Part shown: piece by piece, positions 33,338 through 37,583 of the stretch
Layout of the letters: every line of letters begins with the position of its first letter
How positions within the stretch are numbered: the first letter of the stretch is position 1
Assembly: GCA_963662665.2 (NCBI GenBank)
Contig: CAXXJS010000034.1
Span: 1-63,873 of the forward strand
DNA length: 63,873 nucleotides
DNA from: Candidatus Latescibacterota bacterium
GTDB lineage: Bacteria > Latescibacterota > UBA2968 > GCA-2709665
Reading direction: 5' to 3'
Made by a program: the position numbers and the translations under genes
The notes under the pieces: model-generated
Database searches by the model: none
What the model was told of the DNA's origin: nothing
The model's input: the letters and a program-made list of their open reading frames with translations, nothing else

Positions 33338-33973
33338 TTACCGTTGCCGGGTCGCCGCGGGCGGCCGCAGGGTCAAGGCATCCATAAAGATCTGCACCAG
33401 GTTGTCGACCATTTTACGATCTTCCGCCCTGTCGACGTTCTCGTGGCTCGCGATAAACCTGTTAATACAATGGTGGAGCAGAGCCCAGAAAAATGACCGC
33501 AGTGTCAGTTGTGCGTCCACTTTTCTGAAACGACCGCAGGAGATGCCTTCTTCAATCGTCCGCCGGATCGCTCTCATGCTTGGAGATGTGTAAATGGCGA
33601 AGAACTTCTCACGAAATTTGTGGTCTTCCAGCGCGCTGTACATCATCAGGCGGATAAACGTGGGATCACGCCGGTTCCGCTGAATGTAGGAACAGGCGAA
33701 ATGGCGTAGCATGGTTTCGAGATCGTCTGAATCGCCAGGGCTGTCTTCCTGTTCCCATAAGTGCCGCCATCTTGCGACCGAATTGTTGATTATGGCGTCA
33801 TAGAGGTCTTCCTTCGTGGCGAAGTGCCGGAATATAATCGCTTCCGAGACACCGGCGGCGCGGGCAATTGCCCGTGTCGTGGCGCCCTTGAAACCCATGG
33901 ATGCAAAATGGGAAATTGCGACGTCGATAATCTGGTGGCGTCTTTCTTGCTGAGACAGTCGTTTTTTGGGCAT
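33338..33973 (-). CDS. TetR/AcrR family transcriptional regulator
   Basis: RRHQIIDVA...GFKGATTRAIARAAGVSEAIIFRHFATKEDLY. Confidence 0.95.
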   Translation of the reverse strand: MPKKRLSQQERRHQIIDVAISHFASMGFKGATTRAIARAAGVSEAIIFRHFATKEDLYDAIINNSVARWRHLWEQEDSPGDSDDLETMLRHFACSYIQRNRRDPTFIRLMMYSALEDHKFREKFFAIYTSPSMRAIRRTIEEGISCGRFRKVDAQLTLRSFFWALLHHCINRFIASHENVDRAEDRKMVDNLVQIFMDALTLRPPAATRQR

Positions 33974-34205: not shown

Positions 34206-35042
34206 GTGAACGCGTCCTTTGCAGTCCGGATGGACTTTTTCAACGGGCTGTCAGGTTGTTGCAACCCGCGCGCAACGCAGATCCCGAATCTTCCGGATGT
34301 CTGCCGCGTAACCGGGAGGCTGCCAATGTGCTGTTTGAAGGCCTGGTGGAAGAGCCCGGCACGGAGGACACGTGTTGCGGTGATCGCTGAAATGTCAGGT
34401 GTGCTCGACGGAACGTTCGGCGGCGCAGCCTGGGACCGTAAACGTGTTCGGCCTGATGGTCTCGATGCACTGATGCGGACCATCCTGTCCCAGAATACGA
34501 ATGACGAAAACAGAGACAGGGCTTACGACAGGATGCGCGCCCGGTTTCCTGATTGGAACGACGTGATGGCCGCAGACGCGGCGCAGCTGAAGGAAGCTAT
34601 CCGGGTGGCAGGGCTGGCGAATACGAAAGCCCCGAATATGCAGGCGTTCCTACGTTGGCTGAAGCGCGATCGGGGTAACTTGAACCTGGATTTCCTGCGT
34701 TGTCTGTCGAATCAGACCGCGATTGCCCGGTTGATACAGCATCGTGGTATCGGAATAAAAACCGCTTATATCGTGCTGGCCTTTGCTTATGATCGCGATC
34801 TTTGCGCGGTGGATACGCATGTGTATCGCATCCTGCGTCGGGTGGGCATTGTTTCATCGCGATGCGGCCGGGAGAAAGCACACCTGGAACTCGCGCCACT
34901 GATTCCAGAGGGACAGGCCAGGATCTTTCATATGAATATGGTTGATTTTGGCAAGACCGTGTGCACGGCCAGGAATCCGTCGTGTGGCGTTTGTCCGATT
35001 TCCCATCTGTGCAGATTCTATAGCGAAACACACAGCGTGTGA
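34206..35042 (+). CDS. nth: Endonuclease III / HhH-GPD DNA glycosylase (true start probably further downstream)
   Basis: TILSQNTND, GIGIKTA, AVDTHVYRI, 4Fe-4S motif CTARNPSCGVCPISHLC. Confidence 0.85.
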   Translation: MNASFAVRMDFFNGLSGCCNPRATQIPNLPDVCRVTGRLPMCCLKAWWKSPARRTRVAVIAEMSGVLDGTFGGAAWDRKRVRPDGLDALMRTILSQNTNDENRDRAYDRMRARFPDWNDVMAADAAQLKEAIRVAGLANTKAPNMQAFLRWLKRDRGNLNLDFLRCLSNQTAIARLIQHRGIGIKTAYIVLAFAYDRDLCAVDTHVYRILRRVGIVSSRCGREKAHLELAPLIPEGQARIFHMNMVDFGKTVCTARNPSCGVCPISHLCRFYSETHSV

Positions 35043-35114: not shown

Positions 35115-36191
35115 TCAGTCGATTCTGATTCGCTGAAGATCGTACGAATTGACATTGTAGGGTTCGAAGGTATCCTCGTCGCCGGGCGTATACACGGCGA
35201 CATAGAGGAATTGATCGTTTTTGTCAATTGCGATGCCGCGTTCCTTAAGATTTCCTGCCGCAAGGAAATAGTTTTTCTCCAACTTGGTCCGGGTATCGAA
35301 TTCAACGATGAAGACACCCGCTTCATCAGCGTCTGTTGGCGCAACGAACAAACGACGGCCGTCCCGGCTCAGCGCAAGCCCCAGAGCGGGAGATTTGATT
35401 TCGTATTTCCCCGTAAGCGTCAAATCGTTGGCACTGAATGCCCAGAGATCCTTTACCTGGCCACGGTCCTCAGGATTCGCCAGGCCCAAATAGAGGCGGT
35501 CGTTGAGAGGGCCCAATACAAAATCGTTGATCCTTGCTGAGAAACTGAATCGGGTGGAAGTGGTTTCAGTCGTTGGGAATTGATCTGAGGCGTCGTATTT
35601 CAGGACGTTGTTCCTGCCGGCAACAAAGAGCTTACGCTCGCCCTGATTCATCACAAGTGCACCAGATCGCACATTACCGCTGGTTTCGAAGTTGTCCGCA
35701 ATCGATACGGCAATCAGCAGCGGTTCGTCCAGCGAGGATACGTAGACAATTGAGTCGGTTCCACAGGCGATGTGGGATATATCGTTCAGCGAGAACGGAA
35801 CCGTCTTCACGATCTCGAACGTACCCAGATCGATTACCTTCAGGTTCGATTCACCGTTCAAACCCACCACGAGGTGGCGTTCGTCCGGCGTGATGTCGAG
35901 GTCGATGGGGTGGGAACCCACATGAAGGTTCCCTTCGACGACCATCGGCCTGCCCAGGTGGATGCGGAGAATGCGGTTGTTCCCGTAGTCGGCGAGGTAA
36001 AGAAACGGCTGGTGCGGATCCATTACCATATCCGAGATATTTACGCCGAGTTTCAGGACTTCAAAATCCTCGATCTTGTAAAATTGATCCGGCTCTTCGT
36101 CGTCCAGATACAGCGAGCAGCCCGCCGCACAAAGCAACACGCAAAGGGTAAAAACGACAAACCGGCCGCGGTTTATTCCTGCATTGTTCAT
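35115..36191 (-). CDS. YncE/YVTN-like beta-propeller lipoprotein
   Basis: Lipobox LCAAG-C; repeats LYLAD, VGSHPIDLDITPD, LGLALSRDGRRLFV, GIAIDKNDQFLYV; 10 bp downstream of the barrel gene. Confidence 0.8.
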   Translation of the reverse strand: MNNAGINRGRFVVFTLCVLLCAAGCSLYLDDEEPDQFYKIEDFEVLKLGVNISDMVMDPHQPFLYLADYGNNRILRIHLGRPMVVEGNLHVGSHPIDLDITPDERHLVVGLNGESNLKVIDLGTFEIVKTVPFSLNDISHIACGTDSIVYVSSLDEPLLIAVSIADNFETSGNVRSGALVMNQGERKLFVAGRNNVLKYDASDQFPTTETTSTRFSFSARINDFVLGPLNDRLYLGLANPEDRGQVKDLWAFSANDLTLTGKYEIKSPALGLALSRDGRRLFVAPTDADEAGVFIVEFDTRTKLEKNYFLAAGNLKERGIAIDKNDQFLYVAVYTPGDEDTFEPYNVNSYDLQRIRID

Positions 36192-36201
36192 GCCGGATCG
36201 C

Positions 36202-37173
36202 CTAGAGCGGGAAGACGTACGACGTGCTCAGCTCAATCAGATAATCCGATGTCAGCTGGCTCTCGTTCACGTTTTGAAGAATGACAATGGGCACACGGAA
36301 TTCAACGCTGAGATTTTCCAGGATGTTGACCCCCAATTCAGGAGAGAGATACAGCCATTTCCCGCCCCGTTCTCTTGTAATTTGACCGAACTGGTATCGG
36401 TCCCGTGATGTAATCAGGTTCTTCAGACTCAGCCCGCCGTGGAACGAGCTCTCCCCGGTATACTCTATAGAGAGGGTGGCGTGCAGTTCGTTTCCGTATT
36501 TGTAGCCGTAGATGTTCTGCCGCGAGGTAATGCGGGTGAAGACACCGCCTGAGACCGTAAGGCTTTCAATTCGATGGAACATACCGATTGCGAGAATCGG
36601 GTCGACGCTTCCCGACCCGATCTGCAGATTGTCTGAGAAACGCTCGCCGTATTGATCTTTGGAATTTACAGATCCGTTTGCCAGTTTCAATCCGATGCCG
36701 AGATTGAGGCCGGAAAAGCCCGCTCCAAGCGGTACCCCGTAATTCAACACTGCCACGATGTCGCCCAGGCCGGAGGACTGTCGAACATACTTCCCACCCT
36801 CATACTGGTTGTCGTTCTGTCCGCGCAACAGTACCTTTTCGTTGGTTACTGAACGGAAGGGCAGGGCGAGGGTCAGGCTGAAGCGTTCGGTAATGCCGTG
36901 CGAGGCGATAACGGTGGTTGTGGCATTATCCGTCCGCTCTCGATTGACGTTTGGTATGGCGCGGGAACCATAGTGGGGATCAGACAGGAATTCGTAGTCG
37001 TAGTGTACGCTGAGCCTCAGTTGATCCTTAACGGCCAGGCTATTCTTCATCAGACTCCCGCCCGGGAGCACGGGGCGCCGTCAGCTGACGCCGCCTTGTG
37101 ACCCGGCGTCGGGCGCCGTGACGACTTGCACCAGAAGGAACAGGAAAAGACACCGTGCTGAGTACGGTCGCAT
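36202..37173 (-). CDS. Outer-membrane beta-barrel 'transporter' (COG4313/phenol-MetA-like) with in-frame TGA at codon 31; candidate selenoprotein
   Basis: AAAGGAA RBS and ATG 37173 give MRPYSARCLFLFLLVQVVTAPDAGSQGGVS-TGA-RRPVLPGGSLMKN, in frame with the 289-aa track ORF. Family-like motifs SGLGDI, LQIGSGSVDP, YKYGNE; C-terminal beta strand STSYVF. Confidence 0.75.
37054..37069 (-). promoter_or_regulatory. Candidate bacterial SECIS hairpin
   Basis: GCUCCC-GGGC-GGGAGU begins 11 nt after the UGA; the apical loop starts with G, 17 nt from the UGA. Confidence 0.55.
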
Positions 37174-37342
37174 GAGGGATTTCCTTTATCCACAATAGTT
37201 GGTCGTGAGGCTGGAGTTAGCGATTTCAGCGTTGAAATATACCTCACATGCGTCCGGATAGCAAGACGGTTTTTGTTTCGAGAGACTACATAGAGCCCAA
37301 ATTTACAGATCTTTACATAACCCGCTGTCGAGCCGTTTTTGC

Positions 37343-37415: not shown

Positions 37416-37489
37416 GCTCCCGTAGCTCAGGTGGATAGAGCAACTGCCTTCTAAGCAGTAGGTCGCAGGTTCGAGTCCTGCCGGGAGTG
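37416..37489 (+). tRNA. tRNA-Arg(TCT), CCA not encoded
   Basis: Cloverleaf GCTCCCG/CGGGAGT, anticodon arm ACTGC-CTTCTAA-GCAGT, T-arm GCAGG-TTCGAGT-CCTGC. Confidence 0.96.
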
Positions 37490-37505: not shown

Positions 37506-37583
37506 GGTGGGTGTAGCTCAGATGGTTAGAGCGCCTGGTTGTGGCCCAGGAGGTCGGGGGTTCAAGTCCCCTCACTCACCCCA
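37506..37583 (+). tRNA. tRNA-His(GTG) with G-1 and encoded CCA
   Basis: G-GTGGGTG/CACTCAC-C-CCA, anticodon loop TTGTGGC, TTCAAGT T-loop. Confidence 0.96.

Follow-up and report, generated by a model that had tools for sequence, protein, structure and literature searches.

Is the TGA that interrupts a putative outer-membrane barrel gene in a latescibacterial contig a stop codon, or is it decoded as selenocysteine (Sec)? The gene occupies positions 36202-37173 of the minus strand of the window, by which we mean the whole stretch of DNA analyzed here (63,873 nucleotides, positions 1 to 63,873 of contig CAXXJS010000034.1 from Candidatus Latescibacterota bacterium, assembly GCA_963662665.2). The open reading frame (ORF) called at this locus has a GTG start and encodes 289 amino acids (36202-37071), and we confirmed that it lacks a hydrophobic N-terminus, and thus the signal peptide whose absence had drawn attention to it. 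In the same frame, an ATG at 37173-37171 follows a ribosome-binding-site-like AAAGGAA (37181-37187, 7 nt ahead of the ATG) and opens 30 sense codons, MRPYSARCLFLFLLVQVVTAPDAGSQGGVS, that run up to a single TGA at 37083-37081 (codon 31). A further 11 nt (cggcgccccgt) separate the TGA from a hairpin, GCTCCC GGGC GGGAGT (37069-37054), and the readthrough frame then stays open until a TAG at 36204-36202, giving 323 codons and full-length matches elsewhere. These are the elements on which the original prediction of a new selenoprotein was built, a prediction made by reading this DNA without database searches, and all of them are present. Based on the conservation of the TGA, the covariation of the hairpin, and the Sec machinery of the genome, we consider it about 85% probable that this is a true selenoprotein gene, with conservation in several bacterial phyla that have been little studied.

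We searched 168 genomes of the window's phylum in six frames with the readthrough protein and obtained 38 matches in 21 genomes. Exactly one internal stop is found in 34 of the 38, and it is always TGA; the four stop-free matches are one C-terminal fragment and three relatives at 25-30% identity. All 15 genomes of the window's genus carry two TGA-bearing paralogues, with paralogue A 76-100% and paralogue B 50-54% identical to the window copy. TGA-bearing copies also occur in a second genus (G043 and G044) and in another family (G008, at 30% identity). A scan of all prokaryotes, with one genome per species, returned 48 loci from records titled Latescibacterota, KSB1, Calditrichaceae, Fidelibacterota/Marinimicrobia/Neomarinimicrobiota, and "FCB group," with some records of the window's own genus titled Gemmatimonadota. 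The TGA stands at the same column in 47 of these loci, and the 48th, L101, is without its 5′ part. The two sets share genomes, so their counts are not independent. A stop seen in other genomes at codon 31 was what the original prediction called for, and both sets supply it. Sequencing error was addressed with Logan contigs from four runs in three studies, which span 36900-37300 and show zero differences at 37081-37083; these are assembled contigs rather than raw reads, and some may derive from the window's own source.

The sequence on both sides of the TGA is conserved as protein in one frame, as expected for a bacterial selenoprotein. At each locus the leader has a basic start, a hydrophobic core, and small residues followed by an invariant Gln (AHA|Q, ALA|Q, AYA|Q), with (G/P)-G-(V/I)-S then leading into the TGA. 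The complete pattern, AxA|Q followed by (G/P)G(V/I)S-U-RRPxLPGG, is kept down to 37% identity. An ATG lies 24-36 codons ahead of the TGA in 47 of 50 loci. On the far side, the window's genus has a GTG 4 codons and an ATG 10 codons past the TGA, while many Marinimicrobia loci offer no ATG, GTG, or TTG until 32-112 codons on, within conserved barrel strands, and L102 has no such start within 120 codons. The Arg-Arg-Pro that follows the TGA is encoded by 4-6 synonymous codons at each residue, with a third-position entropy of 1.7-2.0 bits, and this free variation of the codons indicates that the peptide itself has been selected as protein. In the window copy, the signal-peptide-like N-terminus comprises 25 codons, MRPYSARCLFLFLLVQVVTAPDAGS (37099-37173), with cleavage likely before the conserved Gln. 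The TGA at 37081-37083 would then supply precursor residue 31, or approximately residue 6 of the mature chain. The only Cys of the 323-residue product is residue 8, in the signal-peptide-like part, and none follows QGGVS-U; the mature chain is thus free of Cys, as had been stated.

TGA is also the ordinary terminal stop in 17 of 50 family genes, which indicates that these organisms use the standard code. Trp is shown at the Sec column in six database proteins (P0026-P0028, P0030, P0033, and P0067). For each of three of them, P0026, P0030, and P0033, a nearly identical genome locus exists in which this position is TGA (L084, L086, and L088). The simplest cause is probably a gene caller using translation table 4, likely on short contigs. 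Such calls would be a systematic way for selenoproteins to be hidden as Trp proteins. Public annotation otherwise covers just the 282-289 amino acids after the TGA, named "transporter" or hypothetical protein. Because annotation is either truncated or reads Trp, the true product is invisible to most surveys.

The hairpin GCUCCC-GGGC-GGGAGU (37054-37069) overlaps the (V)LPGGS codons, and we asked how it behaves in an alignment of 49 copies, 48 of them distinct. The stem is paired in 93.4% of cells, a share that drops to 27-70% on sliding the 3′ arm by 1-3 columns, and the observed covariation score was reached by none of 500 shuffles. The middle pair, 39-48, is CG in 30 copies, UA in 16, and UG in 2, and is unpaired in none; the closing pair, 36-51, is looser, with GC in 13, AU in 11, GU in 4, UA in 2, and other, unpaired combinations in 18. 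The covariation is between the third positions of two codons, Leu11 (CTC or CTT only) and Gly14 (GGG or GGA only). Across the hairpin, the L-P-G-G codons are limited to two synonyms each (CTC/CTT, CCG/CCA with one CCC, GGC/GGT, and GGG/GGA; entropy 0.93-1.12 bits), which gives the loop as R-G-G-Y. Other conserved Leu, Pro, Gly, and Arg columns of the gene mostly use 4-6 codons with an entropy of 1.6-2.0 bits (Arg242 is lower, at 1.17). Given this restriction of synonymous codons, protein-level selection does not appear to explain all of the hairpin's conservation. A hairpin in a shifted register is retained where the peptide differs, as in L095 (LPGGN) and L026 (LPGE). The covariation proposed as a check on the hairpin is thus found, together with the codon restriction.

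From these comparisons, the mRNA is predicted to carry a minimal bacterial selenocysteine insertion sequence (SECIS), with a 5-6 bp G+C-rich stem and an R-G-G-Y tetraloop, starting 11 nt past the UGA. In the consensus view, a bacterial SECIS is a structurally conserved stem-loop that lies just 3′ of the UGA and has a G in its apical loop. In E. coli fdhF the spacing between UGA and hairpin is 11 nt, and a G in the loop is the rule both for fdhF and for the bSECISearch model. The window element resembles the fdhF SECIS in lying directly 3′ of the UGA, in its 11-nt spacer, and in its apical-loop G, but it is very small, with a stem of 5-6 bp and a loop of 4 nt. The alignment contained no conserved lower stem or bulged base, and the extra small helices that RNAalifold placed around the TGA were dropped, as few pairs stood behind them. 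Rfam gave only chance matches below threshold at the hairpin, and none of its families represents a bacterial SECIS. In Latescibacterota paralogue-A copies, the UGA is the center of a perfect 12-nt palindrome, CGTCAG|CTGACG (window 37076-37087, minus strand). The palindrome was not counted as part of the signal because it is not conserved in Marinimicrobia copies.

The machinery to decode such a signal was located in the same genome, as the original prediction demanded. The tRNA-Sec (73.6 bits), selB (372 bits), and selA (560 bits) are adjacent on contig C16, where selA, selB, and tRNA-Sec form a compact head-to-tail cluster on one strand (G000:C16:126253-129770). The selD gene scores 356 bits and lies on contig C40 (G000:C40:300099-301019); all four exceed curated cut-offs. 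With one in-frame TGA (L052, locus position 1528), selD itself encodes a selenoprotein (…TCG-U-AAK…), and its TGA is followed after 10 nt by a 7-bp stem with a GGUC loop, a build like that of the barrel hairpin. This selD hairpin could serve as a template for finding the organism's other selenoprotein genes. Across the phylum, selA is above cut-off in 131 of the 168 genomes and is present in 17 of the 18 that hold a TGA-bearing barrel, the exception being G044, which is 80% complete and in 820 contigs. It was also found in all five barrel-holding genomes tested from other phyla. Comparison thus shows UGA-31 to be a predicted Sec codon, read through the minimal hairpin by the organism's own SelB. 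SelB, tRNA-Sec, SelA, and SelD together would place Sec at codon 31 in place of termination.

To see what residues the barrel's relatives carry at this position, a family profile was searched against 1.84 billion representatives, yielding 2626 relatives at E <= 1e-3. Distant full-length relatives have Q-x-C-C-S-x-G-x-P, or CC, CxC, CxxC, CxxxC, or CxxxxC, right past the signal peptide. They share with the Sec family the Gln after the signal peptide, a Pro 8 residues later, and a Cys no more than about 3 residues away from the Sec position. HMMER placed profile position 6, the Sec, on one Cys of a CC pair in three of them (P0087, P0110, and P0125). The N-terminal segment is thus the putative conserved chalcogen-bearing motif of the superfamily, in which a single Sec appears to replace a Cys pair in this clade, with the register uncertain by about 3 residues. 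As for the original suggestion to look for Cys at column 31 in orthologs, no close homologue has it there, and distant relatives have Cys in the same N-terminal segment. The three checks that could have overturned the original prediction, on sequencing error, on the Sec machinery, and on the homologues, all came out in its favor. No Sec variant of the CC motif (CU, UC, or UU) was found among 80 Cys-pair metagenome loci (L104-L183); four regex matches lay in non-coding frames.

The neighborhoods of these 80 loci include a DUF3179 lipoprotein in 28, a TlpA-like redoxin in about 10, and a small (~120-aa) PKD/Big_9 lipoprotein in 39, of which the example shown has its own CC. One of the two patterns used to find these loci was the CC motif itself, so the frequency of CC among them is biased. 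The observation on Q-x-C-C barrels and their lipoprotein neighbors also takes in L028:369-1478. The available text of PMC13188914 lists DUF3179 among selenoprotein families, and its presence beside Cys-pair barrels hints at a wider extracytoplasmic Cys/Sec relay. Compared with the Sec family, the Cys-pair relatives have a homologous barrel and the invariant Gln but two Cys, no Sec, and other neighbors.

The predicted mature chain (298 residues, 36205-37098) was modeled with AlphaFold2 from an alignment of 39 mature readthrough sequences. The model consists of a 25-residue N-terminal segment (Q-G-G-V-S-U-R-R-P-V-L-P-G-G...) followed by a 12-stranded beta-barrel, with a predicted local distance difference test score (pLDDT) of 82.9 and a predicted TM-score (pTM) of 0.82, so the barrel fold is predicted with good confidence. 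Its best Foldseek match is FapF (5o65; E 8.5e-13, TMq 0.67), and against the COG4313 channel Pput2725 (4rl8_C) it has TMq 0.70 and TMt 0.77. The COG4313-type barrel originally proposed is thus borne out at the level of predicted fold. At the sequence level, the window protein matched 0 Pfam families at E <= 10, no NCBIfam family, and no chain in the PDB. An 85%-identical orthologue, P0003, passes the 22-bit cut-off of PF13557 with 27.6 bits, and the distant P0062 scores 27.5 bits.

[quoted passage not shown] The window protein resembles the COG4313/PF13557 (Phenol_MetA_deg) channels in its predicted 12 strands and in having an N-terminal segment ahead of strand 1. It differs in carrying a predicted Sec in that segment, while the accessible text of PMC4493636 mentions cysteine nowhere for Pput2725. 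The gene context is different as well: where those channels have aromatic-degradation genes, this family has a TlpA-like redoxin, a YVTN lipoprotein, and an FG-GAP/ASPIC protein. The likeness to FapF is one of fold only, with 13-14% identity, and FapF has no Sec. FapF is the secretion channel for functional amyloid in Pseudomonas, a 12-stranded barrel gated by an N-terminal element, and a fap operon, an N-terminal coiled coil, and a plug helix are typical of its kind. The N-terminal segment of the window protein is 25 residues long with no helix in the model, and no fap genes were seen in the neighborhood (lipoprotein, endonuclease III, TetR regulator, and tRNAs), which sets the protein apart from the FapF type.

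In 37 of the 48 loci, including the A-type copies in all phyla, the gene directly downstream of the barrel, on its strand, encodes a lipoprotein. In the window this gene spans 35115-36191 (minus strand) and has the lipobox LCAAG|C and a mature start of CSLYLDDEEP. The mature N-terminus, C-S-L-Y-x-D-(D/E)-E-x-P, is strikingly conserved across phyla. Lipoprotein tethers are usually variable, and acidic residues past the lipidated Cys resemble the surface-export signal of Bacteroidota, so this lipoprotein may be surface-exposed. Its model (pLDDT 89.2) is a 7-bladed YVTN-type beta-propeller, with best matches to the YVTN S-layer propeller 1l0q and YncE 3vgz and weak Pfam matches to Lactonase and SGL. 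As Foldseek returns generic 7-bladed propellers (the YVTN S-layer domain, YncE, and G-beta), the fold provides no functional lead.

There is a second neighbor: in 23 of the 48 loci the barrel is directly preceded, on its own strand, by a Redoxin/AhpC-TSA protein with a signal peptide and the motif Y[FL]WATWCxxC. This redoxin accompanies all paralogue-B loci, and it is also seen in KSB1, Calditrichaceae, and part of the Marinimicrobia. An FG-GAP/ASPIC-UnbV protein with a type IX secretion system (T9SS) sorting domain is nearby in 29 of the 48 (26 by ORF clustering). In the window's own genome the module is split, with paralogue A, in the window, next to the lipoprotein and paralogue B, on contig C19 (L103: 3126-8377), next to the redoxin. 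Paralogue B is a 53% identical barrel with its TGA at L103:5025. It is preceded by an NHL-repeat (NHL-propeller) lipoprotein and the TlpA-like redoxin and followed by an S-adenosylmethionine (SAM) methyltransferase, for which orthologue L068 shows a weak TehB-like match, and a glutamate-synthase-like flavin mononucleotide (FMN) protein. This gene order is kept in the 10 paralogue-B loci of the all-prokaryote scan (L068-L075, L078, and L094).

TlpA-type periplasmic thiol-disulfide reductases act on metal-site proteins, as in the ScoI/CoxB system of Bradyrhizobium. The arrangement here is similar in that an exported thioredoxin-fold WCxxC protein is encoded beside a target with a reactive Cys/Sec motif, and an interaction can be proposed by analogy. 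It differs in its target, which would be the single-Sec tail of an outer-membrane barrel and not a copper chaperone with CxxxC.

How might such a protein work? The 323-residue precursor would be exported via the Sec (secretory) translocon and cut before the invariant Gln, and the mature chain would insert in the outer membrane as a 12-stranded COG4313/FapF-type barrel. The protein's only chalcogen-ol would then sit on the ~25-residue N-terminal segment, Q-G-G-V-S-U-R-R-P-x-L-P-G-G. At the channel's periplasmic mouth, the selenol may serve as a soft ligand or reactive nucleophile toward a passing soft metal, sulfur or selenium species, or oxidant. The neighboring periplasmic TlpA/redoxin-like CxxC protein could keep the selenol reduced, and the YVTN beta-propeller lipoprotein may be the partner of the barrel. 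This functional picture, drawn from gene context and analogy, is tentative, and we would sooner expect it to need revision than to stand as it is. A more specific version is a redox-active outer-membrane channel in which a single Sec in a plug segment covalently captures a soft substrate or gates its passage, the TlpA-like reductase resets the selenol, and the propeller lipoprotein sits on the barrel and handles the substrate, with the Cys-pair/DUF3179 relatives as the sulfur version of the same outer-membrane chalcogen relay. The substrate might be a lipid-soluble oxidant or a thiophilic metal, or else polysulfide or an elemental sulfur or selenium species. We regard this version as unlikely. 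If it were true, the occurrence of the family in Marinimicrobia could matter for ocean sulfur or trace-metal cycling.

Several observations weigh against the selenoprotein assignment or the function proposed for it. Cys stands at the Sec column in no close homologue, Ser is found there in P0013 and P0017, and Glu or Lys in the more distant P0079 and P0081, so the barrel can evidently exist without the Sec residue. The profile used for the distant relatives itself carried C at the Sec position, and the Sec-Cys register is good only to ~3 residues. The stem of the hairpin is short, and the folding energy of the window hairpin taken by itself is not unusual beside that of shuffled sequence (z = -0.40); the case for the hairpin is built on comparison and not on thermodynamics. 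It also overlaps the conserved LPGG, so part of its conservation could be at the protein level. In the barrel model the first 20 residues have a pLDDT of about 50-55, meaning that their position is not predicted, and the placement of Sec in a plug is therefore an analogy with Pput2725 and not a result. The pore plug of the original prediction survives to the extent that a 25-residue segment precedes strand 1, while AlphaFold cannot place the residues on which it depends. The lipoprotein has no universally conserved free Cys that could be a selenylsulfide partner, and the L095 copy has no Cys at all. Lastly, 25 of the 48 loci lack the redoxin, and it is not beside the barrel copy in the window.

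The alternatives differ in how much of this evidence they can accommodate. A single in-frame stop in one metagenome-assembled-genome-type assembly most often reflects a nonsense pseudogene or an assembly or sequencing error, and such an origin would fit with a public annotation that has just the 282-289 aa downstream part; the TGA would be accidental, and the gene either dead or carrying a sense codon there in reality. We give this practically no chance, because the same column holds TGA in 34 of 38 and 47 of 48 copies, down to 30-37% identity, protein-level conservation extends over both flanks, and the contigs of four runs in three studies are unchanged at 37081-37083. Could the locus instead hold two cistrons, with a 30-codon leader peptide ending at the UGA, a barrel starting at the GTG of codon 35 or the ATG of codon 41, and the hairpin serving in coupling or attenuation? 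Gene callers do choose these starts, which the window's genus has 4 and 10 codons past the TGA. Yet the barrel would then have no signal peptide and be unable to reach the outer membrane, the RRPxLPGG between the TGA and these starts is invariant as protein with its Arg and Pro codons free, and many Marinimicrobia loci have their first start 32-112 codons on, or none within 120 (L102), which makes this arrangement extremely improbable. A third possibility is readthrough without Sec, in which the hairpin assists decoding by a suppressor or near-cognate tRNA (for Trp, Cys, Gly, or Arg) or these organisms use UGA as a sense codon; it could draw on the W at this column in P0026-28, P0030, P0033, and P0067. 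The UGA is also followed by C or A in aligned copies, which is a leaky context. The near-identical loci of P0026, P0030, and P0033 (L084, L086, and L088) nevertheless have TGA. As a terminal stop TGA closes 17 of 50 family genes, internally it occurs exactly once per gene, and the genome encodes the full Sec machinery and a selD SECIS built like this hairpin; we therefore consider such readthrough very improbable.

The remaining alternative accepts the selenoprotein but gives its Sec no catalytic or ligand role. The residue might, for example, tether the barrel covalently to a partner protein through a selenylsulfide, or the decoding of UGA might sense selenium status and thereby set the amount of barrel. 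Such a role would suit the Ser, Glu, and Lys variants at the column, the location of the residue on a segment that AlphaFold predicts to be flexible, and the conserved partner lipoprotein downstream with its unusually conserved N-terminus. It is harder to reconcile with a lipoprotein that lacks a universally conserved free Cys (L095 has none) and with the CxxC redoxin encoded beside the barrel in 23 of 48 loci. Distant relatives also keep a Cys pair and not one Cys, a feature more in keeping with ligand or redox chemistry than with a tether. We judge this alternative improbable.

With the selenoprotein assignment preferred, the question becomes whether the family is new. The bacterial selenoproteins known so far are nearly all redox enzymes of the soluble kind, with Cys forms that usually outnumber the Sec forms. 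The whole close clade here appears to use Sec near the N-terminus of an outer-membrane barrel, unlike the usual selenoproteins. The available part of Table 1 in PMC13188914, a 2026 inventory of 119 selenoprotein families, does not contain the barrel family. The same table predicts two outer-membrane selenoprotein families, the GSU2204 MtrB/PioB-like barrel (NF041027) and the FCYXU-type TonB-dependent receptor (NF049945), so an outer-membrane location alone is not new. The statement that no selenoprotein was characterized as an outer-membrane channel therefore needs qualification: the accessible text of PMC13188914 gives no sign that either predicted family has been characterized, but outer-membrane selenoproteins had already been predicted. 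Both families are, like the window protein, outer-membrane beta-barrels predicted with one Sec (PMC13188914, as available). They are of the large porin-cytochrome or 22-strand receptor types, not COG4313-type, and the window protein would have its Sec at the extreme mature N-terminus. The window protein (P0001) has no NCBIfam match at E <= 0.1, and it thus belongs to neither NF041027 nor NF049945.

A full-text literature search returned nothing that pairs "selenoprotein" with "PF13557," and the accessible literature on selenocysteine in these phyla held nothing on the barrel family. The "Hypothetical protein GOS_A" of PMC2398784, with 2 Sec sequences and 155 Cys homologues, could not be identified from the available text and may be the barrel superfamily. 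We conclude that this is a new selenoprotein family within a known barrel superfamily. Its unusual traits are the lack of a close Cys form, Sec at the mature N-terminus, and a very small SECIS in the next four codons. The last of these offers a compact case, found in nature, of a minimal SECIS that sits inside coding sequence. The family's conserved association with a lipoprotein and a periplasmic redoxin suggests outer-membrane chemistry without characterized precedent, and the Marinimicrobia copies make metaproteomic confirmation realistic.

Just upstream of the barrel gene, a tRNA-Arg(TCT) at 37416-37489 and a tRNA-His(GTG) at 37507-37583 are both on the plus strand. As they lie on the strand opposite to the selenoprotein gene, its promoter region would be confined to about 240 nt. 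The other window neighbors are seemingly unrelated, namely a TetR-family regulator (33338-33973, minus strand) and an endonuclease III-like HhH-GPD protein (34206-35042, plus strand). Farther off, the window encodes an HD-domain protein, an M23 peptidase, and LptF/G.

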